Source of the DNA: Candidatus Latescibacterota bacterium | GTDB taxonomy: Bacteria > Latescibacterota > UBA2968 | Length of the DNA: 64,000 nt | Reading direction: 5' to 3' | Assembly: GCA_965204375.1 (NCBI GenBank) | Contig: OZ241986.1 | Coordinates: 4,610,898-4,674,897, forward strand | Shown: positions 17,568 through 30,807 of the stretch, one piece after another | How positions within the stretch are numbered: position 1 is the first letter of the stretch | How the letters are laid out: every line of letters begins with the position of its first letter | The notes under the pieces: model-generated | What the model was told of the DNA's origin: nothing | Databases searched by the model: none | The model's input: the letters and a program-made list of their open reading frames with translations, nothing else | Position numbers and translations under genes: made by a program

Positions 17568-18494
17568 ATGAATAACGTGTGGGAAGTACCCGAGCCTCTT
17601 TCGACCTGCGAAGTCCAGCTCGACGACAATACCGTCACCACTCTGCGGCGGCATGGAAATCCCGAAGGCCCCCGACTCGTTCTGAGCCACGGCAATGGCC
17701 TCGCAATAGACCTCTATTACCCTTTCTGGTCACGGCTCGCCGATGATTTCGACCTCATCATCTTCGACCTCAGGAACCACGGCTGGAATACCGTTGGTTC
17801 ACGCGAAAAACACAATATCCCGACGCTGGTCCGCGACCAACTCTGTATTTTTGAATCCATTGACCGTCACTATGGGAATAAACCAAAAACCGGTATATTT
17901 CACTCTGCTTCCGCACTGATAACCCTCCTATCATTAACGGCTATGGCAGACCTGTGGTCGTCCGCCCAAAGCAGCCATTTATCGGCGATGATTTTATTTG
18001 ATCCCCCTTTGTGCAAGCCCGGCAATAGCCAGATAGAATTCGATAAGGCCATCGAACACGCAGCCGCAACTACCCGCCGCCGCGGGTATTTGTTCCAAAC
18101 AGAAGAGGATTTTGCAGAACTCCTCAGCTATCTGCCCGGCTTCTCACGCGTCGTTCCCGGGGTTCGGGAACTCATGGCGCGAACAACACTTCGAAAGTCT
18201 GCTTATGAACAGGGTTACGAGCTTCGGTGTCCTCGCGACTACGAGGCGCAGATCACTGATTATTTCAGGAGTTTTTCTGCATTGACGGATTTTGAAACAC
18301 TGTCTTGTCCCACAAAGGTCATCGGAGCCGACCCCACCTTGCCCTATGCATTTCTGCCGACCATTGACCTTGGTGACATTCTAACTGTAGATTACGATTT
18401 CGTACCAGAAGCAACACATTTTCTTCAATTGGAAAAACCAGCGAAATGCGTTGATATGGTCCGGGAATTTCTCGAGATTAATCGCCTGTTGTAA
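17568..18494 (+). CDS. Alpha/beta-fold hydrolase (possible thioesterase/acyl hydrolase partner of the PKS)
   Basis: Track ORF 17517..18494. The start is probably ATG 17568 (MNNVWEVPEPL). It has the oxyanion-type motif LVLSHGNG and a nucleophile-elbow-like FHSASA instead of a canonical GxSxG. It ends 26 nt before the PKS start. Confidence 0.65.
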   Translation: MNNVWEVPEPLSTCEVQLDDNTVTTLRRHGNPEGPRLVLSHGNGLAIDLYYPFWSRLADDFDLIIFDLRNHGWNTVGSREKHNIPTLVRDQLCIFESIDRHYGNKPKTGIFHSASALITLLSLTAMADLWSSAQSSHLSAMILFDPPLCKPGNSQIEFDKAIEHAAATTRRRGYLFQTEEDFAELLSYLPGFSRVVPGVRELMARTTLRKSAYEQGYELRCPRDYEAQITDYFRSFSALTDFETLSCPTKVIGADPTLPYAFLPTIDLGDILTVDYDFVPEATHFLQLEKPAKCVDMVREFLEINRLL

Positions 18495-18520
18495 AACCCG
18501 TGCGAACATGGAGGTGTCAC

Positions 18521-21500
18521 ATGAAGCCGGATAAATCAGACCAACCAATAGCGATCGTAGGTATGGCGTGTCGATTTCCCAACGCACCGAATATCTCTGC
18601 CTTCTGGCGTCTGCTCGAAGCCGGTCAGAACGCCGTGACGGAAGGTTCTCCAGGCTCTGGCGTCGGCCGCGTGGGTACGCTCTTCCCAGACGCTGAGGTG
18701 CAGAACGACGCCTGCCGTTTCGGTGCCTTCGTCGATGACATCGACCTGTTCGACGCCACCTTCTTCCGCATTTCGCCAGTCGAAGCGCAACTGCTGGATC
18801 CCCAGCAGCGGATGATGCTGGAGACGAGCTGGCAGGCGCTCGAGGACGCGGGGATAGATCCGGATCGGCTAAAGGGTAGCCGCACCGGTGTGTACGCGGG
18901 AATCAGCAACAACGATTATCGGGGCGTAATCTTGGGATCCAGCAGAACTGCCGAGCCTTCCGCCAGCCTCTTCTCTGTCGCGGGCACCTCTCTGAACACA
19001 GCCATAGGTCGAGTAGCCTTCGCACTGGGTCTTGGAGGACCGGCAATGGCGGTAGATACCGCCTGTTCGTCGTCGCTGGTTGCGACGAACCAGGCGGTTG
19101 CTGAATTGCAGCAGGGCAAAGCGGATCTGGCACTGGCGGGCGGGGTGCAGGCGATCCTTTCCGGGCGGCTAACCGAACTGCGGGGAAATGCCGGGATGTT
19201 GTCGCCAGACGGGCAATGCAAGGCGTTTGATGCGTCTGCGAATGGCTTCGTGCGAGGTGAAGGCTGCGGAATTGTGGTCCTCAAACGGCTGAGCGAAGCA
19301 GAGGCCGATGGCGATCACATCTGGGGCGTCATCCGAAGCACCGCGGTAAACCAAGATGGCGCGAGTACAGGCCTGACGGTACCAAACGGTCCGGCACAGG
19401 AGCGCGTGATCGAAGAGGCACTATCGCGGGCGGGAATTCTGCCATCGGAAGTCGATTATGTGGAGGCACACGGAACGGGCACAGAGGTGGGCGACCCCAT
19501 TGAGATAAACGCGACAGCAGCGGTGTACGGCAGGGGACGCGACGCGGACAACCCGATACTCGTCGGCTCGGTAAAAACAAATATCGGTCATCTGGAGCCA
19601 ACCGCGGGGGTTGCGGGCCTGATCAAGACCGTACTCTCGATGAAGCAGGGCGTGATCCCAAAGCATCTGCACTTCGAGAATCCCAATCCGAACATGGACT
19701 GGGATCGACTACCTCTGCGAGTGACTTCCGAGGCAATGGACTGGCCGCTCAACGCCGAACGACCACCGATTGCGGGAGTGAATTCGTTCGGATGGTCGGG
19801 CACAAACGCGCATGTCATAGTGGAGGGGTACGGAACACCAAAAAGCAGTGATGAAGAGTATTTACCCGTGGGATCCGCACGGCCTGTTGCCATTTCTCTA
19901 CCGAAGTCAGTGCTGCCGCCGGAGGAAGAAATCGGCGCGCGCAGGACGCGATTGCTGCCGCTATCGGGAAAATCCGATGAAGCGCTTCGAGACCTGGCGG
20001 GGCAGTATCTGAAACGCGGTTTTGCTTCCGAAGATGAAGCCAGGCTTGCCGACATGGCGTGGACAGCCGGCGTGGGACGAAGCCATTTCCCTCACCGCGC
20101 GGGCATCGTATTCAGCGATGGCGCATCGCTGCGCGAGAGCCTGAGTGCACTCGCAGAGATCAGCACGAGACCTGCACCGCAAACGCCCTCCAAAATCGCA
20201 TTTGTATATACCGGACAGGGTAGCCAGTGGATCGGCATGGGCGAAAACCTGTACCACACCGAACCAGTGGTGCGCGCAGTGCTGGACCAATGCGACGCCG
20301 TACTGCGGGAAGCGCGAGGCACCTCATTGCTCGATGTGATGTTCGGACGCGCAGGTGATTTATCCGACCAAGCGTGGACACAACCAGCTATTTTTGCCAT
20401 AGAATGCACGCTGACGGCGCTCTGGAAAAGTGTGGGTATTACACCCAGTGTGGTGCTCGGACACAGTCTTGGAGAACTGGCAGCGGCACAAGCCGCGGGT
20501 GTATTTAGCATAGAAGAAGGTGTGCGATTTGCCGCGGCGAGAGGTGAACTGACAGCGACACTGCCCGGTGGTGGGGCCATGGCGGCCATTTTTGCGGATG
20601 TGTCACAGGTAGAATCAGCCCTCAACGAACTCAACGCAGCTTCCACAGGCGTGGGACTGAGCATGGCGGCATACAACGGCGCGCATCAGGTGGTGAGCGG
20701 TCCCGAAGAAAAAGTCGAGGCGATCTCCGAGCACTTCCTCGCGCAGGACATTCGGGTCAGCCGCTTGCGCACCACGCACGCATTCCACAGTGCATTGGTA
20801 GAACCGATGCTGGACAAACTGGATGCCATAGTCTCAGAGATCGCGGTCGCATCCCCATCGCTCACCCTGGTGAGCAATGTGACGGGTCAGGTGCTGGAAA
20901 CGGGAAAACGTCAGGATAGTGCGTATTGGCGTCAGCACACGCGAAAGCCAGTGGCATTCGCGCCAAGCATCGAGACATTGGCTGGGCTGGGCGTCGATCT
21001 CGTCATTGAAGTCGGTCCGCACGCCGTGCTGAGTACAATGACGACCCTGTCGTGGCCAGACACGGCAGAGGGTCCTCCTGTTGCGCTACCGAGCTTATTG
21101 CGCCCCTCGTCCAAAGTGTCGCAAGCAGAAGCCGACCGCGCATTTACAGCGGCGGTTGCAAAAGCTTATGAAGCGGGTCTTTCCGTGTCCTTTGCCGGAC
21201 TGTTCGCAGGTGAAACCCGGCGCCGCATTTCGCTGCCGAGCTATCCTTTCCAGCGCGAACGCTACTGGGTCGAAGCGCCGAAACGACGGCGGCAGATCGC
21301 CGGCCATCCCCTCCTGGGCGAGAGGCATGAATCCGCCAGCGGCGAGATCGCGTTCGAGACCGAAGTACTCCCCTCGGATCCGACTTGGCTGAACGATCAC
21401 CGGGTATTCGGCCGTGTCATAGCCCCGGGCGCGCTCTATGGGGCGATGGCGATATCGGCATCCATGGCTGAGGAAAGCGGATCGATGGTCATCGAGGAAA

Positions 21501-24500
21501 TGCAACTGCACAACGCGCTGATCTTCCCGGAGGAGAGTGCGGATAACGATGAAGGCGGGGGCCGAGAAATGCAGGTTCTGCTCGAGGCTCCGGGGGAGGA
21601 GCCTTCGCGCCTCGTTCGAATATTCAGCAAAGGAGAGGCCGAGGAGGATTGGACGCTGCACGCGGAGTGTCGCGCGCCATCGGATACCAACGCGCAGCAA
21701 GCCTCTGAGCAGGTGAATCTGGAAAGCCTGAAGGCCGGTCTGTCGCCCGAGGACGTGCCGGCGTTTTACCGCGCCAAGGCGGGCGTCGGGATCGATCTCG
21801 GCCCATCGTTCCGCACGCTGAGGATGGTCTGGTCCCGGGCGGGCGAGGCGTTGGGAGAAGTGTGTTTCCCCGAGGCTCTCGGCGGGAACGATCTCGACGT
21901 ACACCCGCTCCTGCTCGACGGTTGCTTTCAGGTGATGGGAGCCGCGCGCAATCCGGGTGGAGCCGAAGACGGAATCACCTATCTGCCGTTCGGCTGGGAG
22001 CGGCTGTGGCTGCCGGATCGGCTACCGGATCGGTTTCTCTGCCACATGCGCATGCGGGAGGCTTCGAAGAATCGGGAACCGGATGCCGAAACCGGTGGGT
22101 CGCCGGAGGTCTTTGTAGGGGATTTCCTTCTCTACGACCAGAGTGGGGTCCTGATCGGCGAATTGAGCGGATTCATGGTGAAGCGTGCGACGCGGGCGGC
22201 GCTGCTCTCGGCAGTGGAAGGGGTTCAGGAACTGCTCTACGAGGTCATGTGGCGCGAAAGCACCCTTGCGCCGGGACTGCTGCCAGCGGATTTCCTCCCG
22301 AGTCCGGGAGAGGTTGCGGACCGGTGGGAGCTGTTCTCCGACTACCTGGCGGCGGAAGGAGTCGATGCCGGATTGAGGCCCGCCTGGTTGGCGGACCTCT
22401 CGTGCATGGCGCGGCATTTTGCGCTCTCTGCCCTGGAGAAACTCGGATGGGAGAGAAAGGCGGGCACCGCCGTGGACTCCGAAGATTTGCGGCAGCGCCT
22501 GGGGGTCCTGGATGAACACAGCCGTCTGTTCCGCCGGATGCTCGAGATATTGGCTCGCGCAGGCGTTCTGGAGGCGGCGGGCGAAGGTTTTGTCGTTGCC
22601 GTAGGGGCCGGAGAGCCGCTGCCAGAAGGAATTCCGGGCAATCCCGAGCAGTTCGCGGCACAAGTGAACGAGCGTTACTCGTATGCTTCAAGCGAGATCG
22701 GGATTTTTCGCAGAAGCGCGGGTGCCCTGGCGGAAGTGCTTCGCGGCGAAGAGGATCCGCTGTCGCTTCTCTTCGGCAGCGGAGAACCCAGCGCCGCGGA
22801 TCTCTATTTCAAGGCACCGATATATCGAGCGTCGAACCGGATGTTGGGAGACGCGGTGCGCACACTTGTAGCCGGGTTGCCCGAAGGACGGCGCTTGAGG
22901 GTGATTGAGGTCGGGGCGGGTACCGGATCGGCGACCGAATCCGTCCTGCCGGAGCTTCCCGAAGGGCGGTACGACTACATGTACACGGATATCTCGGCGG
23001 GTTTCTTCGCGCAGGCAGAGGGGTTGTTCGGCGATGAGTGTATCGAGTACCGGGTGCTGGACATCGAAAAAGACCCCGTAGAGCAGGGATTCGACCCCCA
23101 CGGTTATGACTTGTTGATTGCGTCCAATGTGCTGCACGCCACGCGGTACCTGGAGGAGACGCTAACGCACTGCCGGAGCCTTCTCGCGCCGTCGGGACAT
23201 CTCGTGGCACTCGAGAACCTTTGCGGCCAGGATTGGCTGGATATGACTTTCGGACAATTGGACGGCTGGTGGCGGTTCTCCGACGACTGCCGCCCCACCT
23301 ACGCCCTGGCGGGGCCAGACGTATGGCGACAGTCCCTCGGCAGCGTGGGTTTCGAAGGCGTGGAGATTCTGGGACTGGGCGGACCCGACGCCGCCGAGAT
23401 GCCGGATAGGGGCGTGATTCTGGCGCAGCTGCCCGAAGAGGTCGCCGAGCAGCGCGGAGTATGGGTTCTGGCGGCGGACCGCGGCGGCGCGGCGGCGGAG
23501 CTGGCCCTGGAGTTGGCGGCGCGCAACCAGACGGTTGTGCTGGCGAGCGATGCAGGTTCGACGGGAGAGGGTCCGGCGGATGAAAAAACTGCTGTCATCC
23601 ATACGTCCCTGGAGATGGAGCACCGAGAATCGTGGCAGTCGCTGCTCGAAGACCTGCCCGGGCATGCGGCACTCAGCGGTGTCGTGCATTTCGCGGCGCT
23701 CGACGGCCACGGCCCCGATACGACGACTGCTGAAATGGCGGAGAACGTGAAACGAGTGGGAGCAAGCGCATTGGCGCTGGCGCAGGGTCTGGCCGACGCC
23801 GATGTGACGCCCGAGAAGGGCTTGTGGTTTCTCACGCGGGGCGCGCAGGTGCTGGAGCGCGAACGCGCCGGAGAGCTTGTCGGCGCGACGCTATGGGGTT
23901 TCGGAAAGGTACTGGCCCGGGAAGCATCCCACATGCAGCCGAAGATGATCGATCTGGATCCCGAGCCTACGGCACCGCCGGTAGATCTCGCCAATGAACT
24001 GCTCTATCCCGATACGGAAGACCAAATCGTACACCGCGGCAGCCGACGCCGCGTAGCCCGCCTTGTCCGGACCGGCGAGGGGACGGATAGGATAAACTTG
24101 CCCGAAGAGCCGGGCTGGATGCTGGGGGTCGGCGAGGACGGCGCGATCGCTGACCTGCAGGTGGCGCCGACGCCGCTGGAGTCGAAAGAAGTTCGCGTGG
24201 CTGTCGAGGCCGCCGGATTGAACTTCTGGGATGTGTTCGCGGCACTCGGTTTGATTGACGAGAAATTCCTGGGCACGGAGTTTTGCGGCCATATCATCGA
24301 GGTCGGCTCCGAGGTGGCGAGCGTTGCGGTGGACGATCGCGTCGTGGGATTGGCATTCGGCACCTTCGGGCCGGAGGTGGTGACCCGGGCGGAACTCTTG
24401 GCACCCGCGCCACCGGATTTGTCCGCTACGGCGCTCGCCTCAATGCCGACGGTGTTCGTGTCAGTCGCGCTGTCTTACGAACTCGCGGGGCTGAAAGCCG

Positions 24501-27500
24501 GTGACCGCGTGCTGATTCACGCAGGCGCGGGCGGCGTGGGGCTTGCGGCCATCCAGTGGGCGCAGGCGGCGGGAGCGGAAGTGTTCGCGACGGCGAGCGC
24601 GCCGAAACAGGCGTATCTCCGCTCGCTCGGCGTAAAGCATGTGTTCGACAGCCGTCAGACGAAATTCGGGGAGGAAATCCTCAAGGCCACGGGGGGTGCA
24701 GGGGTCGATGTGGTATTGAACAGCCTGACGGCGGAAGGTTTCATCGACGCGAGTCTGGCGTGTCTGGCGCATGGTGGCCGGTTCGTGGAACTGGCGGCGC
24801 GGGACATTCTGAGCGAGGAAGAGATGGCGGCCGTACGGCCGGACGTGGCCTATTACATCGTGAATCTTCATGCCATGAAGGGGGATGACCCGGCGCGACC
24901 CGGCGCTTTGCTGAGAGATGTCATGAAACGGCTGGCAGCGGGAGAACTAACGCCGCTCATCCACACCAGATGGCCGCTTGCCGAAGCGAGACGGGCCATT
25001 GAGTTCATGCGCGACGGTAGGCACATCGGAAAAATCGCCTTTGCGAATTCGCCGCTCACCAGTGGGCGGTTGCGAGAGGATCGAACCTATCTGGTAACAG
25101 GTGGTCTGGGTGGGATCGGGTGCGTAATGGCCGACTATTTGGCGGATCGCGGCGCGGGTGCAATCGCGCTAAACGGGCGCCGGGCACCGAACCCTGAAGC
25201 CGAAGAGACGATCCGCAGGCTGCGGGAACGAGGCGTGACAGTGCAGGTAGAGATTGCAGATGTGACGGACGCCGATGCAATAGATGAGATGCTGGCGCGG
25301 ATGGATGAGACGCTACCGCCGCTGGGCGGCGTAATCCACAGCGTGGGGGTGTTGTCGGACGGTGCGCTCGGGAACCAGAGTTGGGAAAGATTCGAGCAGG
25401 TGCTGTGGCCGAAGGTGCTGGGCGCGTGGCATCTGCATCGCGCGACTGAGGACCGCGATCTGGATATGTTTGTCCTCTTCTCCAGCGTGGCCGGTGTGCT
25501 GGGCAATCCGGGCCAGTCGAACCACGCGGCGGCCAATGCGTTTCTGGATCAACTCGCCGCGCATCGCCGCGCACTCGGACTTCCGGGACAGACCATCGCC
25601 TGGGGCGCGTGGTCGGAACTCGGCGAAGCGGAAGAACAACGGGAACGGATTGCCGAACGGCTGGAAGCGCGAGGAACGGATTGGATAACTCCGCAGCAAG
25701 GTCTCAGGGCATTCGACCAACTGGTGCGCGAGGACGCCGCGACATCCGTCGTGCTGGCAGCCGATTGGTCGTCTTACGAGGAGGGCCTGGAATACCGGAT
25801 GCCCCTGCTGGAGGATCTGCTCTCCACCATTTCAGAAGACGAGGCCGACTCGCCTGCTCTGGCGGACGACCTGATGTCCCATCTGGCGGAAACGCCCGCG
25901 GCGGAGCGTGAGGCCCTGTTGGTATCGTTCCTGCAGCAGGAATTACAGGCGGTGCTGAGGTTGCCGACAGCACCCGAGCCCACGGTGGGATTTTTCGATC
26001 TGGGGATGGACTCGCTAATGGCCGTAGAATTGCGAAATCGGCTGAACCGCGCGTTTGCCGATGAGTACGTGGTCCCCAACACTGTGGTATTTGACTACCC
26101 GGACATCGCCCGTCTCGCCAACCATCTAATTGAGGAACTCGGCGAAGTCAGCACTGTGCCCGCCCCTCCACCCCAGGTGCAACCCGAGCCAGAGCCACAG
26201 ACGGAAGTACAGCGCGAGGACAACGGTATTGCGATTGTGGGCATGGCCTGCCGCTTCCCCGGCGCCCCGGATCTTTCCACCTTCTGGCAGCAGCTTGAAG
26301 CAGGTGCGGACGCCGTGACAGATGGACGCCGGGATTCCGGTTCATGGAACGCTCTTGCCAAAGACCTTCCTCCCGAATACGCCGCCTATCGCCGGGGCGG
26401 ATTTGTGGAGGAAATTGATCGATTTGACGCGAGATTCTTTCGGATTTCGCCGATTGAAGCGCGCATGATGGATCCGCGGCAGCGCATGATGCTGGAGACG
26501 ACCTGGCAAGCGCTCGAGGATGCGGGAATTGATCCAGACAAATTGAGGGGCAGCCGCACCGGGCTATACGCTGGCATCGCCACCAGCGAATACCGGGACC
26601 TGATGACAGCCAGCGACTACGGCATCAGTTATCTGAGCACTGCCGCGAGCATGACGGTCGGGCGAATTGCTTTCCTTCTTGGTCTGGAGGGACCGACGAT
26701 ACCGGTGGAACTCAACTGCGCGTCGTCACTGGTCGCAGTGCATCAGGCAGTGATGGGTTTGCGGGAGGGCGAAGTAGATATGGCCCTGGTTGGAGGGACA
26801 CACGCAGTTCTGTCACCTGAATTAACCAAAGAGATGGCGGAGTTGGGGATATTGTCGCGGGAAGGACAGTGCAAAACCTTCGATGCCTCTGCGGATGGCT
26901 TTGTGCGGGGCGAGGGCTGCGGGATGGTCGTCCTCAAGCGGCTGAACGAGGCAGAAGCAGATGGCGACCGCATCTGGGGCGTGATCCGCGGGTCTGCGGT
27001 CAACCAGAACGGGGCGAGCGCAGGACCCACCGTGCCAAACGGACCGGCGCAGGAGCGGGTAATTGAAGAGGCACTGTCGCGGGCGGGCGTTGCCCCATCA
27101 GAAGTAGATTATCTGGAAGCCCACGGGGGTGCGTCGGAGTTGGGCGACCCGATCGAAGTTCAGGCAGCGGCGGCTGTTTACGGCAAGAACCGCGAAGCAG
27201 ACCGCCCGCTTTTGATCGGCTCCGTGAAGACCAACATCGGTCACCTGGAGCCGGCTGCCGGGGTTGCGGCTCTGATCAAGGCAGTACTGGCGATGAAGCG
27301 AGGGGTGATTCCCAAAAACCTGAACTTCAAGAATCCGAGTCCGCATATAGACTGGGACCGGTTGCCGGTGCAGGTAGTATCAGCCCCGACGGACTGGCCG
27401 CGTCATCCCGATCGTCCGCCGCGGGCAGGGGTAAGCGCCTTCGGGATATCGGGCACGAATGCCCATGCTGTCGTAGAAGGGTATGACAGCCCGGATGCAA

Positions 27501-28579
27501 CGCCTGTGGGTGCCGCGCAACCCGTTTCTCTGTCGGTCGTGGATCTCATAGGCGAGGAAGAAGAATTCGCTCCGCGCCAGACGCGGCTCCTGCCCCTCTC
27601 GGGAAAATCCGATGAAGCGCTCCGAGATCTGACAGGACGCTATCTATCGTGGCTCGACGCGCTCGCATCCGAAGATGAGGCGACACTTGCCGACATGGCG
27701 TGGACAGCGGGTGTGGGGCGCAGCCATTTCGATCACCGCGTGGGCATCGTATTCCAGGATACCGAATCGCTGAGAGAGAGGTTACAGACACTCGCAGAGA
27801 TCGGTGAAAGACCTGAGCCACGTATGGCGACAAAGATCGCCTTCGCGTACACAGGACAGGACAGCCAGTGGATCGGCATGGGGAAAGACCTCTACGAAAG
27901 CGAGCCGGTAGTCCGCGCAGTTCTGGACCGTTGCGACGAAGTCCTTCGGGAAGAGCGGGACACCTCCTTGCTGGACGCGATGTTCGATCAGAACGGTGAT
28001 CTATCTGACCTGCCTGCCATCTATGCACTGGAATCCGCACTTACAGCACTGTGGTCAAGCGTGGGGATTCAGCCCAGCGTGGTGGTCGGACACGGTATAG
28101 GGGAAATTGCAGCGGCACAGGCAGCGGGCGTCTTTAGCCTGGAGGATGGCTTGCGGGTTGCAGCGGCACGGGACACGGACAGTCTGGAAGCCACCCTCAC
28201 AGACGTCACAATTGCATCGCCATCTTTGACCCTGGTGAGCAGTGTAACAGGAGAGATCGAGAGCCTTGACGCAGCATACTGGCATCGGCAAGCGCAGGCA
28301 CCAGTGGCATTCGACAAATGCGCGAAGAATCTGGCCGATCTGGGGATTGATGTACTCATCGAGATTGGCCCGAACGCAGTGCTGGATCCGATAGAGGGCG
28401 ACGCGAATCCACCCGTTGTGTTATCGAGTATAGGAGACAACGGTTTTGTAGAAGCAGTAGCAAAGGCTTATGAAGCGGGACTTTCGGTATCATTTCCCGG
28501 GCTATTTGCGGGAGAAACGCGCCGCCGCATCTCGCTGCCGAGCTATCCATTCCAGCACCAGCACTACTGGATTCAATAG
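18521..28579 (+). CDS. Type I polyketide synthase, KS-AT-DH-cMT-(structural KR)-ER-KR-ACP-KS-AT(degenerate)
   Basis: The ATG at 18521 is preceded by GGAGG (18510-18514); the track starts at GTG 18500. All domain signature motifs can be read in the translation; see the domain features below. Confidence 0.95.
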   Translation: MKPDKSDQPIAIVGMACRFPNAPNISAFWRLLEAGQNAVTEGSPGSGVGRVGTLFPDAEVQNDACRFGAFVDDIDLFDATFFRISPVEAQLLDPQQRMMLETSWQALEDAGIDPDRLKGSRTGVYAGISNNDYRGVILGSSRTAEPSASLFSVAGTSLNTAIGRVAFALGLGGPAMAVDTACSSSLVATNQAVAELQQGKADLALAGGVQAILSGRLTELRGNAGMLSPDGQCKAFDASANGFVRGEGCGIVVLKRLSEAEADGDHIWGVIRSTAVNQDGASTGLTVPNGPAQERVIEEALSRAGILPSEVDYVEAHGTGTEVGDPIEINATAAVYGRGRDADNPILVGSVKTNIGHLEPTAGVAGLIKTVLSMKQGVIPKHLHFENPNPNMDWDRLPLRVTSEAMDWPLNAERPPIAGVNSFGWSGTNAHVIVEGYGTPKSSDEEYLPVGSARPVAISLPKSVLPPEEEIGARRTRLLPLSGKSDEALRDLAGQYLKRGFASEDEARLADMAWTAGVGRSHFPHRAGIVFSDGASLRESLSALAEISTRPAPQTPSKIAFVYTGQGSQWIGMGENLYHTEPVVRAVLDQCDAVLREARGTSLLDVMFGRAGDLSDQAWTQPAIFAIECTLTALWKSVGITPSVVLGHSLGELAAAQAAGVFSIEEGVRFAAARGELTATLPGGGAMAAIFADVSQVESALNELNAASTGVGLSMAAYNGAHQVVSGPEEKVEAISEHFLAQDIRVSRLRTTHAFHSALVEPMLDKLDAIVSEIAVASPSLTLVSNVTGQVLETGKRQDSAYWRQHTRKPVAFAPSIETLAGLGVDLVIEVGPHAVLSTMTTLSWPDTAEGPPVALPSLLRPSSKVSQAEADRAFTAAVAKAYEAGLSVSFAGLFAGETRRRISLPSYPFQRERYWVEAPKRRRQIAGHPLLGERHESASGEIAFETEVLPSDPTWLNDHRVFGRVIAPGALYGAMAISASMAEESGSMVIEEMQLHNALIFPEESADNDEGGGREMQVLLEAPGEEPSRLVRIFSKGEAEEDWTLHAECRAPSDTNAQQASEQVNLESLKAGLSPEDVPAFYRAKAGVGIDLGPSFRTLRMVWSRAGEALGEVCFPEALGGNDLDVHPLLLDGCFQVMGAARNPGGAEDGITYLPFGWERLWLPDRLPDRFLCHMRMREASKNREPDAETGGSPEVFVGDFLLYDQSGVLIGELSGFMVKRATRAALLSAVEGVQELLYEVMWRESTLAPGLLPADFLPSPGEVADRWELFSDYLAAEGVDAGLRPAWLADLSCMARHFALSALEKLGWERKAGTAVDSEDLRQRLGVLDEHSRLFRRMLEILARAGVLEAAGEGFVVAVGAGEPLPEGIPGNPEQFAAQVNERYSYASSEIGIFRRSAGALAEVLRGEEDPLSLLFGSGEPSAADLYFKAPIYRASNRMLGDAVRTLVAGLPEGRRLRVIEVGAGTGSATESVLPELPEGRYDYMYTDISAGFFAQAEGLFGDECIEYRVLDIEKDPVEQGFDPHGYDLLIASNVLHATRYLEETLTHCRSLLAPSGHLVALENLCGQDWLDMTFGQLDGWWRFSDDCRPTYALAGPDVWRQSLGSVGFEGVEILGLGGPDAAEMPDRGVILAQLPEEVAEQRGVWVLAADRGGAAAELALELAARNQTVVLASDAGSTGEGPADEKTAVIHTSLEMEHRESWQSLLEDLPGHAALSGVVHFAALDGHGPDTTTAEMAENVKRVGASALALAQGLADADVTPEKGLWFLTRGAQVLERERAGELVGATLWGFGKVLAREASHMQPKMIDLDPEPTAPPVDLANELLYPDTEDQIVHRGSRRRVARLVRTGEGTDRINLPEEPGWMLGVGEDGAIADLQVAPTPLESKEVRVAVEAAGLNFWDVFAALGLIDEKFLGTEFCGHIIEVGSEVASVAVDDRVVGLAFGTFGPEVVTRAELLAPAPPDLSATALASMPTVFVSVALSYELAGLKAGDRVLIHAGAGGVGLAAIQWAQAAGAEVFATASAPKQAYLRSLGVKHVFDSRQTKFGEEILKATGGAGVDVVLNSLTAEGFIDASLACLAHGGRFVELAARDILSEEEMAAVRPDVAYYIVNLHAMKGDDPARPGALLRDVMKRLAAGELTPLIHTRWPLAEARRAIEFMRDGRHIGKIAFANSPLTSGRLREDRTYLVTGGLGGIGCVMADYLADRGAGAIALNGRRAPNPEAEETIRRLRERGVTVQVEIADVTDADAIDEMLARMDETLPPLGGVIHSVGVLSDGALGNQSWERFEQVLWPKVLGAWHLHRATEDRDLDMFVLFSSVAGVLGNPGQSNHAAANAFLDQLAAHRRALGLPGQTIAWGAWSELGEAEEQRERIAERLEARGTDWITPQQGLRAFDQLVREDAATSVVLAADWSSYEEGLEYRMPLLEDLLSTISEDEADSPALADDLMSHLAETPAAEREALLVSFLQQELQAVLRLPTAPEPTVGFFDLGMDSLMAVELRNRLNRAFADEYVVPNTVVFDYPDIARLANHLIEELGEVSTVPAPPPQVQPEPEPQTEVQREDNGIAIVGMACRFPGAPDLSTFWQQLEAGADAVTDGRRDSGSWNALAKDLPPEYAAYRRGGFVEEIDRFDARFFRISPIEARMMDPRQRMMLETTWQALEDAGIDPDKLRGSRTGLYAGIATSEYRDLMTASDYGISYLSTAASMTVGRIAFLLGLEGPTIPVELNCASSLVAVHQAVMGLREGEVDMALVGGTHAVLSPELTKEMAELGILSREGQCKTFDASADGFVRGEGCGMVVLKRLNEAEADGDRIWGVIRGSAVNQNGASAGPTVPNGPAQERVIEEALSRAGVAPSEVDYLEAHGGASELGDPIEVQAAAAVYGKNREADRPLLIGSVKTNIGHLEPAAGVAALIKAVLAMKRGVIPKNLNFKNPSPHIDWDRLPVQVVSAPTDWPRHPDRPPRAGVSAFGISGTNAHAVVEGYDSPDATPVGAAQPVSLSVVDLIGEEEEFAPRQTRLLPLSGKSDEALRDLTGRYLSWLDALASEDEATLADMAWTAGVGRSHFDHRVGIVFQDTESLRERLQTLAEIGERPEPRMATKIAFAYTGQDSQWIGMGKDLYESEPVVRAVLDRCDEVLREERDTSLLDAMFDQNGDLSDLPAIYALESALTALWSSVGIQPSVVVGHGIGEIAAAQAAGVFSLEDGLRVAAARDTDSLEATLTDVTIASPSLTLVSSVTGEIESLDAAYWHRQAQAPVAFDKCAKNLADLGIDVLIEIGPNAVLDPIEGDANPPVVLSSIGDNGFVEAVAKAYEAGLSVSFPGLFAGETRRRISLPSYPFQHQHYWIQ
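18545..19830 (+). other. PKS domain KS1 (ketosynthase)
   Basis: IAIVGMACRFP; active-site DTACSSSL (Cys codon 19064-19066); EAHGTGTEVGDPIE; KTNIGHLEPTAG; GTNAHVIVEGY. Confidence 0.9.
20195..21035 (+). other. PKS domain AT1 (acyltransferase, malonyl-type motifs)
   Basis: FVYTGQGSQWIGMG; GHSLGE (Ser codon 20465-20467); HAFHS (20777-20791), which is generally associated with malonyl-CoA selectivity. Confidence 0.9.
21305..22200 (+). other. PKS domain DH (dehydratase)
   Basis: HPLLGE; HxxxGxxxxP read as HRVFGRVIAP (His codon 21398-21400); a later LLDGCFQ (DxxxQ). Boundaries are approximate. Confidence 0.8.
22670..23370 (+). other. PKS domain cMT (SAM-dependent C-methyltransferase)
   Basis: Motif I VIEVGAGTGS (22901-22930); YDLLIASNVLHAT downstream. 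Boundaries are approximate. Confidence 0.8.
24130..25045 (+). other. PKS domain ER (enoylreductase, MDR type)
   Basis: VRVAVEAAGLNFWD; NADPH-binding LIHAGAGGVGLAAIQ (from 24518). Boundaries are approximate. Confidence 0.85.
25088..25640 (+). other. PKS domain KR (ketoreductase), with His at the position of the catalytic Tyr
   Basis: Rossmann motif YLVTGGLGGIG (from 25088). FSSVAGVLGNPGQSNHAAANAFLD occurs where typical KRs read ..GQ.NYAAAN. (CAC codon at 25523-25525). Confidence 0.8.
25900..26135 (+). other. PKS domain ACP1
   Basis: GFFDLGMDSLMAVELRNRL (Ser codon 26012-26014), followed by a Pro/Glu-rich linker PAPPPQVQPEPEPQ. Confidence 0.9.
26228..27485 (+). other. PKS domain KS2 (second ketosynthase, catalytic C-H-H retained, divergent active-site context)
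   Basis: IAIVGMACRFP; VELNCASSL (Cys codon 26717-26719) instead of DTACSSS; EAHGGASELGDPIE; KTNIGHLEPAAG; GTNAHAVVEGY. Confidence 0.85.
27836..28385 (+). other. PKS domain AT2, degenerate (AT0): nucleophile Ser replaced and about 90 residues deleted
   Basis: FAYTGQDSQ instead of GQGSQ. GHGIGE instead of GHSLGE (Gly codon 28094-28096). The segment holding the small subdomain and the HAFH motif is missing when aligned by eye to AT1. Confidence 0.8.
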
Positions 28580-28601
28580 CCAAAACGACCACAAAAAAAA
28601 T

Positions 28602-28630
28602 TTGACTTTACGCATGCCGATCACTATCTT
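28602..28630 (+). promoter_or_regulatory. Sigma70-like promoter candidate for the discrete ACP gene (TTGACT, 17-nt spacer, TATCTT)
   Basis: Hexamers read directly in the 92-nt gap between the PKS stop and the ACP start. Confidence 0.3.
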
Positions 28631-28671
28631 TTCGGTTCAAACTATCTTACTCTTACGAAAGGAGCGTAACA

Positions 28672-28911
28672 ATGGCTTCAACCGAAGAACGTATCAGAAA
28701 CCTCATCGCGGAAAATCTGGAAGTCGATGGGCAGCCAATTGCGTTACCCGATGATCTGAGCATCAGCCTTCTGGAGGCCGGAATTTCCTCCGTAGATCTC
28801 GTCGCGTTCGCGAAAATAGTCGAACAAGAATTTGACGTTAAATTGACTCTTGAAGATTGTACTAATCTCAACAGCGTACGGGAACTGGTCGCGCGGCTGG
28901 ACGCAGCCTGA
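28672..28911 (+). CDS. Discrete acyl carrier protein
   Basis: 79 aa. LEAGISSVDLVAFAKIVEQEF aligns by eye with the LGADSLDTVELVMALEEEF region of bacterial ACPs (candidate phosphopantetheine Ser codon 28789-28791). AAGGAG lies upstream of the ATG. Confidence 0.8.
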   Translation: MASTEERIRNLIAENLEVDGQPIALPDDLSISLLEAGISSVDLVAFAKIVEQEFDVKLTLEDCTNLNSVRELVARLDAA

Positions 28912-28953
28912 GGCTGAAATCCTCTCCAGCCGGAGAACGTACGCTTCTTACAG

Positions 28954-28985
28954 AACAGGCCCCGGATGGAAATTCGGGGCCTGTT
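28954..28985 (+). terminator. Terminator-like hairpin after the ACP gene
   Basis: A perfect 11-bp stem pairs aacaggccccg (28954-28964) with cggggcctgtt (28975-28985), with a 10-nt loop. Only a weak T tract follows (ggtttat). Confidence 0.5.
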
Positions 28986-29023
28986 GGTTTATGGGAATTC
29001 GATGAAGGTTCCGCTTATTCAAC

Positions 29024-29063
29024 CCTTCACACTTCACAGTACGGGCGAAAGATTTTCGCCCCT
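29024..29063. repeat. Composite intergenic element: two CTTCAC heptads plus a GGGCGAAA/TTTCGCCC hairpin
   Basis: Read directly: ccttcac acttcac agt ac GGGCGAAA gat TTTCGCCC ct. It is near-identical to 35747-35779. Confidence 0.85.
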
Positions 29064-29073
29064 TCTCTTCACA

Positions 29074-30807
29074 ATGAATACCAATAACCCCAGCGGTGAC
29101 ACAGGCATCCGCTACCAGCCCGACGAAAGGCCTCCGGCGACACTCGCCCTCGGCCTTGGCTTGCAACTCGCGGTTCTCAGCATAGCCGCCATCATATTGG
29201 TCCCCACAGTCGTGATGCGCGCCGCCGGTACGACGGAAGCTTATCTGTCATGGGCCGTGTCTGCCACGGTCGTGGTCGGCGGGGTGGCCACAATTCTGCA
29301 ATCGATCCGCATCGGCCGGATCGGCATGGGCTACCTTCTCATTATGGGTCCGTCCGGAGCCTTCATCGCGGTCTGCATCACGGCGACCACCGAAGGCGGT
29401 CCGGCAATGCTCGCCACCCTGGTCGTCATCTCATCCTTCGTCCCGCTTGTGCTTTCCCATCGGCTTTCGCTATTCCAGCGACTCTTGACGCCGACTGTGG
29501 CGGGAACAGTAATCATGCTGATACCGATTACGATAATGCCGCCCATCTTCAATCTGCTATCGGTGCCCGGCGCACCAGCACTCGCTGCGCCGCTGAGTGC
29601 GCTTGCAACAATCATCATTATCAGCGGCATCGCGCTAAAGGCGGCCGGGGTGTTGCGCCTCTGGGCACCGGTTATCGGTGTTGCCGCTGGCTCGATAATT
29701 GGCGGCTTTTTCGGTCTATACGAGGTGGATCGCATTGCCGAGGCTTCGTGGATCGGCCTGCCGCCGAACGAATGGCCGGGCTTCGACCTCGACTTCGGGC
29801 CAACTTTCTGGGCACTTCTTCCCGCATTCTTACTCGTAGCCATAATCAGTACCATCCGAACGATCAGCAGTTCCGTCGCCATCCAACGCATATCGTGGCG
29901 TCAGAGCCGGGCAGTGGATTTCCAGGCGGTGGAAGGTGCGATAACCGTGGATGGGATGAGCAACTTGATTTCCGGTCTCGCAGGGACAATACCCAACACA
30001 GCCAACACGCTGGGCGTGTCGATGGCCGAACTCACCGGGGTCGGTGCCCGCAACGTCGGGATTGCCACCGGAGCAGTGTTTATTGCTATGGCATTTCTTC
30101 CGAAAGTACTCGCCCTGATTCTGGCGATACCAGGCCCCGTCATCGCAGCTTACTTCGCCATAATGCTGGCGACGCTCTTCGTAGTCGGCATTAAAATAGT
30201 CTTTCAGGATGGAATCGACTATCGCAATGGCATGATCGTCGGCATCGCATTCCTGGTCGGGGTTGGCTTCCAGAGCGGTCTGATATTTTCCGAGCATATC
30301 TCGGAATTTGCAGGCGGTCTTTTGCGGAATGGGATGAACGCTGGCGGTTTTACAGCCATCATCTTGACGCTATTTGTGGAACTAACAGAGCCTCGCCGCA
30401 GTCGGATAGAGATGACATTCGATTTTTCCGCCCTGCCAAAAATCAGGGACTTTCTCGGCGCGTTCGCATCTCGCAACGGCTGGGACACTGCAATGGCGAA
30501 CCGCCTGGACGCCGTCGCTGAGGAGACATTGCTAACACTCATCCCACAAGATGAAGAGAACCATGACCGACGGCACTTGCGCCTTATTGCGTACAAAGAA
30601 GAAGGCGACGCGGTTCTCGAGATCGTTGTCTCATCGGGAGAGGAGAACATTCAGGATCGGATCGCGCTGCTCGGCGAACAGACGGATGAAGCACCCATCG
30701 AGCGGGAAGTTTCACTTCGGCTATTGCGACATCTCGCGTCCTCTGTTCGCCACCAGCAATATCACGACACGGATATCGTAACCGTGCGCGTGAAAGCACA
30801 CGTCTAA
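29074..30807 (+). CDS. NCS2 (xanthine/uracil-type) family permease fused to a C-terminal cytoplasmic domain resembling an RsbW/SpoIIAB-like (HATPase-type) regulatory fold
   Basis: The track ORF starts at 28966, inside the terminator hairpin. I placed the start at ATG 29074 (MNTNNPSGDTGIRYQPDERPPATLALGLGLQL). Membrane blocks GLQLAVLSIAAIILVPTVV, GMGYLLIMGPSGAFIAV and TPTVAGTVIMLIPI resemble NCS2 signatures. The last ~135 aa (IEMTFDFSALPKIRDFLGAFASRNGWD...AVAEETLLTLI...LEIVVSSGEEN) are soluble. Confidence 0.7.
   Translation: MNTNNPSGDTGIRYQPDERPPATLALGLGLQLAVLSIAAIILVPTVVMRAAGTTEAYLSWAVSATVVVGGVATILQSIRIGRIGMGYLLIMGPSGAFIAVCITATTEGGPAMLATLVVISSFVPLVLSHRLSLFQRLLTPTVAGTVIMLIPITIMPPIFNLLSVPGAPALAAPLSALATIIIISGIALKAAGVLRLWAPVIGVAAGSIIGGFFGLYEVDRIAEASWIGLPPNEWPGFDLDFGPTFWALLPAFLLVAIISTIRTISSSVAIQRISWRQSRAVDFQAVEGAITVDGMSNLISGLAGTIPNTANTLGVSMAELTGVGARNVGIATGAVFIAMAFLPKVLALILAIPGPVIAAYFAIMLATLFVVGIKIVFQDGIDYRNGMIVGIAFLVGVGFQSGLIFSEHISEFAGGLLRNGMNAGGFTAIILTLFVELTEPRRSRIEMTFDFSALPKIRDFLGAFASRNGWDTAMANRLDAVAEETLLTLIPQDEENHDRRHLRLIAYKEEGDAVLEIVVSSGEENIQDRIALLGEQTDEAPIEREVSLRLLRHLASSVRHQQYHDTDIVTVRVKAHV

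Follow-up and report, generated by a model that had tools for sequence, protein, structure and literature searches.

A duplicated ketosynthase-acyltransferase didomain with a non-catalytic, conserved acyltransferase remnant in a probable Sup-type polyketide synthase of a Latescibacterota bacterium

The long type I polyketide synthase (PKS) gene described here ends in a second ketosynthase-acyltransferase (KS-AT) didomain, an old duplicate of the gene's own first didomain, in which the acyltransferase has lost its catalytic parts and kept its large subdomain. The gene lies in a 64,000-nt stretch of a Candidatus Latescibacterota bacterium genome (assembly GCA_965204375.1, contig OZ241986.1, positions 4,610,898 to 4,674,897 of the forward strand), termed the window below, whose own numbering is used for all nucleotide positions. 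A Pfam scan of the open reading frame (ORF) gave the order KS, AT, dehydratase (DH), C-methyltransferase (cMT or MT), enoylreductase (ER), ketoreductase (KR), acyl carrier protein (ACP), KS and AT; by this order the part up to the ACP makes up one fully reducing module that includes a C-methyltransferase, and the two didomains are referred to as KS1-AT1 (copy 1) and KS2-AT2 (copy 2). From its domain set, distribution, accompanying permease and KS1 motifs, the gene is best regarded as a member of the Sup (“sponge symbiont ubiquitous”) PKS family (PMC3908369, PMC4245539, PMC9426513), whose genes dominate KS surveys of sponge metagenomes and whose product has only been proposed, as methyl-branched fatty acids (PMC4245539, PMC3908369). 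We consider it probable that this Sup-type PKS has a split second module, formed by KS2, the AT2 remnant and a discrete ACP encoded by a separate gene, which would elongate the chain with malonate loaded in trans.

The internal duplication had been proposed in an initial annotation of this DNA and is well supported by alignment and phylogeny. A local self-alignment of the ORF paired aa 12-925 with aa 2572-3359 (507 identities in 783 aligned positions, or 65%), and every motif quoted in the annotation was found in it at the correct coordinates. The likeness at protein level stands; the accompanying description of the copies as often near-identical in DNA was overstated, since their codon-aligned DNA identity is 68% overall, and the two pairs of stretches given as examples reach 81% (19950-20090 against 27590-27730) and 83% (21160-21270 against 28462-28570). 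Third-position identity is only 48%, and the longest exact word common to both copies measures 23 nt. A search with the C-terminal 800 residues returned over 100 proteins, 3330-3460 aa long, that share this Pfam set and are 62-94% identical in the C-terminal region; both didomains could be parsed in 98 of these, to which all motif counts below refer. Compared all against all, the KS domains of copy 1 and copy 2 from the same protein share an identity of 0.61, the same value as between copies of different proteins; gene conversion has therefore not evened out the two copies. This equality, together with the third-position identity, rules out a recent duplication or gene conversion as the source of the similarity. 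In a maximum-likelihood (ML) tree of all KS-AT didomains, including 18 from other PKSs found by the same search, copy 1 formed a clade with support 1.0 and copy 2 a clade with support 0.90, and the group of both excluded the 18 others with support 1.0. A second tree, to which eight didomains were added, including terminal KS-dead-AT units of larger PKSs (26 outgroup didomains in total), retained the sister relationship with supports of 0.997, 1.0 and 1.0. This sister relationship of the two copies indicates a single ancient duplication: KS2-AT2 arose once, from KS1-AT1 of the same gene, and did so before the family had spread to its many phyla.

Judged by its sequence, AT2 cannot be an acyltransferase, as it lacks both the nucleophile and the region that holds the specificity motif and catalytic His. 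The nucleophile elbow reads GHGIGE (nt 28088-28105) with a verified Gly codon, GGT, at 28094-28096, and GQDSQ (nt 27854-27868) stands in place of GQGSQ, both as initially annotated. The shortening by about 90 residues is likewise real: a single gap of 88 residues, accompanied by smaller ones, lies opposite AT1 aa 683-770 including THAFHS, and places the deletion at about nt 28172-28177. Across the family the HAFH region is missing from AT2 in 98/98 members, and the nucleophile Ser remains in five, being Gly or Asp in the others; the His preceding the nucleophile is often Gln or Arg, and the conserved Arg is often lost. AT1, on the other side of the comparison, has GHSxGE and xAFHS in all 98. 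What is left at the deletion site differs by lineage, from 0 to 19 residues. The Pfam Acyl_transf_1 model matches AT2 over profile positions 2-117 only, and in an alignment to the CurL KS-AT structure (4MZ0), query residues 15-666 correspond to CurL 38-706 and residues 670-799 to CurL 796-936, which leaves CurL 707-795 without a counterpart in the AT2 region. Counting from the nucleophile, we take AT1 aa 683-770 to correspond to about residues 119-208 of Escherichia coli FabD, that is, to the ferredoxin-like small subdomain with the catalytic His201.

A structural model of AT2, one of the checks suggested in the initial annotation, leads to the same boundaries. An AlphaFold2 (AF2) model of the linker and AT2 (aa 3026-3352, built with 31 diverse sequences) reached a mean predicted local distance difference test score (pLDDT) of 83.9 and a predicted template modelling score of 0.87, with a pLDDT of about 80-90 in the KS-AT linker domain. 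The model retains this domain and the large subdomain, including the strand-elbow-helix around GHGIGE, and a short helix and a loop take the place of the small subdomain with its catalytic His. In Foldseek comparisons with KS-AT didomains (4MZ0, 2HG4, 8EE0 and others) the model scored template modelling (TM) values of 0.81-0.85 normalised to the query, and because the alignments run to about 430-440 columns for 327 query residues, some 100 target residues remain unmatched. The best sequence match of the whole C-terminal region is a trans-AT PKS bimodule (7ZMA), in which KS2, the linker domain and the post-AT linker alone find their equivalents.

KS2 has kept its catalytic residues. The Cys-His-His triad in an altered context, noted initially, was read again here as ELNCASS (nt 26708-26728), EAHGGAS (within it HGGASE, nt 27122-27139) and KTNIGH. 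The Cys, mostly in ELNCASS, the His of HG[GAS][GA]S and the His of KTNIGH are each present in 98/98 members, as is the Lys of KTNIGH; the canonical HGTGT is absent and replaced by HG[GAS][GA]S in 97/98. KS1 shows Cys, HGTGT and N-x-GH without exception (98/98). Against nine close orthologues, the ratio of nonsynonymous to synonymous substitution rates (dN/dS) in KS2 is 0.09-0.18. The KS2 equivalents of the classic primer sites read MDPRQR (26459-26476) and HGGAS (27122-27136) instead of DPQQR and HGTGT. Because KS2 lacks HGTGT and mostly lacks DPQQR, amplicon surveys of sponge PKS genes with the classic degenerate primers would detect only KS1.

Since AT2 cannot be an acyltransferase, any acceptor ACP has to be loaded in trans, as the initial annotation had already reasoned from the missing nucleophile and specificity/His region. 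The acceptor itself, which was absent from that annotation, exists as a conserved free-standing gene, starting 92 nt after the PKS stop codon. We surveyed 78 loci, obtained by scanning one genome per species, with a profile of this ACP; among the 59 loci that have the same gene end as here and at least 450 nt of flank, 44 carry a homologue as the next gene downstream, in the same orientation. In the motif G-[IV]-S-S-[VM]-D, the attachment Ser is kept in 48/49 sequences. This ACP family is separate from the in-line ACPs of PKSs, and housekeeping AcpP models match it only below their cut-offs. In three distant orthologue neighbourhoods the PKS is likewise found with a PP-binding gene (73-81 aa) and an Abhydrolase_6 gene (about 300 aa), in shuffled order and orientation, and in one of them (L080) also with a permease homologue. 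We propose the discrete ACP as the partner of KS2, and the alpha/beta hydrolase encoded just upstream of the PKS is probably a release or editing enzyme of the locus. As for the source of malonate, Pfam detects three AT matches in the genome, which is a single contig of 6.34 Mb: besides AT1 and AT2, the latter at half length, there is a stand-alone gene of 305 aa, presumed to be FabD, at 1.6 Mb from the PKS; AT1 is thus the sole complete AT besides this FabD-like gene.

In the mechanism that we favor, module 1 would build a reduced, alpha-methylated acyl chain on the in-line ACP, KS2 would take this chain over, AT1 or FabD would malonylate the discrete ACP in trans, and KS2 would condense the chain with the malonate held there. 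The hydrolase could then free the product from the discrete ACP, or the product could enter fatty-acid synthesis; this second fate would be in line with the proposal of methyl-branched fatty acids as products of Sup enzymes (PMC4245539). In this way the discrete ACP would act together with KS2 and the AT2 scaffold as a split module that has neither an acyltransferase nor any reducing domain. That both His residues are kept speaks for elongation over mere transfer. Several observations weigh against this reading. The first Thr of HGTGT is missing in the KS2 motif, and condensing competence is only predicted; 15 of the 59 eligible loci have no ACP within the short flank available; and in a few loci (L024, L042, L070, L081) the ACP gene precedes the PKS or has the opposite orientation, a placement that fits co-function and is silent on the order of action. 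An AF2 model of the whole KS2-AT2 didomain (14 sequences) was unusable (pLDDT 42.6), so the KS2/AT2 interface falls outside the modelled region, and no biochemical data on any family member were found in the literature searched.

One alternative would have KS2 pass the finished chain unchanged to the discrete ACP, as a non-elongating transfer or gatekeeper domain like KS0, from where the hydrolase or the fatty-acid synthase would take it. The nearly universal alteration of HGTGT, the lack of an own AT and of reducing domains in this module, and the recurrence of the altered motif in terminal KS-dead-AT units of unrelated multimodular PKSs all speak for such a role. However, loss of the His of HGTGT is characteristic of the KS0 domains in trans-AT PKSs, and KS2 keeps this His in every parsed member; both invariant His residues are what malonyl decarboxylation requires. 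We therefore hold simple transfer to be unlikely. It is still less probable that KS2-AT2 is purely architectural, for instance a C-terminal dimerisation or docking platform, with the discrete ACP serving elsewhere, such as in bringing a starter acyl group to KS1. AT2 is certainly non-catalytic, and in L024 and L042 the ACP gene precedes the PKS, as such a scheme might have it; but a structural KS is not expected to preserve Cys, both His residues and the KTNIGH Lys throughout the family at so low a dN/dS, and neither the window nor the three orthologue neighbourhoods hold an acyl-ACP ligase or fatty acyl-AMP ligase (FAAL) gene beside the PKS.

The split-module reading treats AT2 as a scaffold, and the initial annotation had allowed for neofunctionalisation or decay after the duplication. 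The Ser-to-Gly change, GQDSQ and the large deletion would suit a lineage-specific duplication whose last didomain is now decaying by pseudogenisation, yet conservation within the family tells otherwise. Within copy 2 the identity is 0.74 in the N-terminal part of the large subdomain and 0.61 in its C-terminal part, close to the copy 1 values of 0.79 and 0.67, and in the post-AT linker copy 2 (0.78) is more conserved than copy 1 (0.66). Measured against the nine close orthologues, dN/dS for the two parts of AT2 is 0.12-0.30 and 0.19-0.36, far below 1, and AT2 and KS2 fall within the range of AT1, DH, MT and ER. Because the remnant is kept under purifying selection, AT2 is a pseudo-enzyme scaffold and not a decaying leftover. 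Fourteen diverse copy-2 sequences, when aligned, show an invariant frame G-x-x-x-G-E-x-A-A-A with variable catalytic positions inside it, as would be expected of a pseudo-enzyme kept for its shape. Moreover, the dead state is common to 98/98 orthologues of many phyla, the ORF is open in every orthologue, and the copies form sister clades older than the family's spread instead of pairs nested within single genomes; both decay and the recency it implied are thus abandoned as very improbable.

The possibility of an assembly artefact, which the initial annotation had also raised, was addressed by the read-level check it suggested. Logan contigs of two samples (X1, X3) cover 25408-29200 with zero differences and an even depth of about 30-36 and 45-58. 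In another study, a DNA run and a metatranscriptome run contain a close relative at roughly 95% identity, whose contigs (27469-28699 and 27234-28712) remain collinear from AT2 past the stop codon into the ACP gene, lack indels within the ORF and differ in length solely in the intergenic spacer; the metatranscriptome contig (27234-28712) bridges AT2 and the ACP gene. Beyond the mere presence of two similar regions nothing favors a collapsed or expanded repeat, which an assembler could not have produced because the two regions are only 68% identical, and with the same architecture in more than 100 independent assemblies, closed chromosomes among them, we regard this chance as practically nil.

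The family is widely distributed. The 78 loci come from metagenome-assembled genomes (MAGs) of Latescibacterota, Rhodothermales, Binatia/Deltaproteobacteria, Chloroflexota/Dehalococcoidia, Bryobacterales, Gammaproteobacteria, Longimicrobiales and others, many of which bear sponge-project bin names. The closest relatives are from Candidatus Latescibacterota MAGs (94% identity), and the sequencing runs that contain the region are labelled sponge or coral metagenome. Further genes near the PKS include ankyrin, tetratricopeptide repeat (TPR) and sulfatase genes, and because of these and the closest relatives we read the genome as that of a sponge- or coral-associated symbiont. Divergence along the gene is mosaic. 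Relative to L003-L005 the synonymous divergence (dS) exceeds 1 or reaches saturation between AT1 and ER but is only 0.3-0.45 from the ACP to AT2, and relative to L007 the pattern is reversed. KS1 also occurs in two types, DTACSSS (46 members) and DAACASS (52), which do not follow C-terminal similarity. The mosaic and the KS1 types together suggest recombination between sup alleles of different lineages.

Features of the locus are listed in Table 1.

Table 1. Features of the PKS locus and its neighbours, in window coordinates
Feature	Positions	Strand	Remarks
Alpha/beta-hydrolase gene, 325 aa	17517..18494	+	Pfam Abhydrolase_6, E = 4e-9
Sup-type type I PKS ORF	18500..28579	+	3359 aa; 10-kb ORF in the window; Sup-type by domain set, distribution, permease and KS1 motifs
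KS1	18542..19678	+	DTACSSS, HGTGT, NIGH
AT1	20201..21106	+	Intact, malonyl-type; GQGSQ, GHSLGE, HAFHS
In-line ACP of module 1	25931..26128	+	Pfam PP-binding, aa 2478-2543
KS2	26222..27484	+	ELNCASS, HGGAS, KTNIGH
KS-AT linker domain of the second didomain	27485..27829	+	Pfam CurL-like_PKS_C / RhiE-like_linker, aa 3030-3099
AT2 pseudo-domain	27830..28399	+	Large alpha/beta-hydrolase subdomain kept; Ser to Gly; small subdomain and catalytic His deleted
Post-AT linker (...AGLSVSFPGLFAGETRRRISLPSYPFQ)	28400..28576	+	Within-copy-2 identity 0.78 across the family
Free-standing ACP gene, 79 aa	28672..28911	+	Pfam PP-binding, E = 2e-11
NCS2/xanthine-uracil-type permease gene	28966..30807	+	Pfam Xan_ur_permease; frequent PKS neighbour

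For two genes the true start probably lies downstream of the listed one. In the PKS it is likely to be the ATG at 18521, since orthologues start with the Met encoded there (MKPDKS...); in the permease it is probably 29074, a position that fits homologues of about 577 aa with 94% coverage of the query. The last ~135 residues of the permease (30400-30807) weakly match an NCBIfam model of an RsbA-type anti-sigma factor (E = 0.009, well short of the cut-off), and two permease homologues carry Pfam PF13581. The G+C content of the PKS is 0.57-0.64 per 2 kb, that of the flanks about 0.50-0.56 (window 18000-28000), which is consistent with horizontal spread of the locus. In the KR, the motif GNPGQSNHAAAN (25508-25543) has a His (codon 25523-25525) at the position of the catalytic Tyr of PKS and fatty acid synthase (FAS) ketoreductases (GQxNYAAAN). 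This is not a local mutation, as GNPGQ[AS]NH[AS][AS]AN is found in 109/110 family members.

Comparison with the Sup PKSs as described in the literature brought out no essential difference. Both are small type I PKSs with a single reducing, C-methylating module, and both are spread among sponge symbionts of many phyla, Sup PKSs having been reported irrespective of bacterial taxonomy (PMC9426513). A permease, SupE (ABE03914), is described for the sup cluster (PMC3908369), and the Xan_ur_permease gene next to the present PKS may be its counterpart. The KS1 of the present gene bears DPQQR and HGTGT, the primer motifs behind the dominance of supA among sponge KS amplicons. Named SupA or SupE sequences were sought by cluster look-up and by a search for permease homologues, which returned only entries named “SDR family oxidoreductase” or “hypothetical”. 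Full-text literature searches, whose coverage did not extend to the primary SupA paper, found no description of a C-terminal KS-AT in a Sup PKS. The original SupA architecture (Fieseler et al., 2007; AEM 73:2144) was reportedly drawn with a C-terminal KS and a dead AT. What the present analysis may add are the family-wide statistics, the evidence for selection, the assignment of the missing segment to the small subdomain, and the similar terminal units in multimodular PKSs.

These last units (P0037, P0038, P0052, P0055, P0072, and L083 at 17814-19030) lie at or near the end of the protein and consist of a KS with HG[GIS][GS][ST], an AT without GHSxG or HAFH, and then YPFQ; in P0052 an 82-aa PP-binding gene and an Abhydrolase_6 gene follow. 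They differ from the Sup didomain in being attached to multimodular lines and, because they fall outside the sister pair of Sup copies in the tree, they do not stem from the same duplication. The N-terminal ACP of P0037 was considered as a fused equivalent of the discrete ACP and rejected, because its score with the profile of the discrete ACPs was 1.9 bits; it is a normal in-line ACP of the PKS type. More speculatively, a KS with HGxGS, an AT without its small subdomain, a discrete ACP and an alpha/beta hydrolase might together be a distinct hand-off or termination cassette that arose more than once in the cis-AT PKSs of sponge symbionts, and that in Sup enzymes would couple a methyl-branching round to a free ACP. 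If so, the cassette could feed fatty-acid synthesis and lead to mid-chain-branched fatty acids, and would explain the role of the Sup PKSs, which are very abundant and functionally unsolved. The conserved terminal KS and the constrained pseudo-AT, with the accompanying ACP and hydrolase, yield a concrete and testable model of chain exit. Automated annotation, for its part, will count a second “AT” that cannot work.

To our knowledge no AT lacking only its ferredoxin-like subdomain has been described, and none was found in the literature searched. The nearest known systems are the KS-linker units of trans-AT PKSs (“AT docking” or vestigial-AT; 7ZMA, 4NA1, 4TKT), where a KS is likewise followed by a non-catalytic remnant of the KS-AT region and a trans-acting acyltransferase loads the ACP, as would be the case for the present gene. 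In those systems, however, the whole AT fold has been lost and a dedicated trans-AT is encoded, whereas here the large AT subdomain is retained, the locus holds no such enzyme, and the unit was copied from the cis-AT of the same gene. Pseudo-domains also occur in mammalian FAS and in highly reducing PKSs, namely the pseudo-ketoreductase (psi-KR) and pseudo-methyltransferase (psi-ME), which are truncated, dead copies kept under selection as structural parts; they differ from AT2 in the type of domain, which in the present family is an AT.

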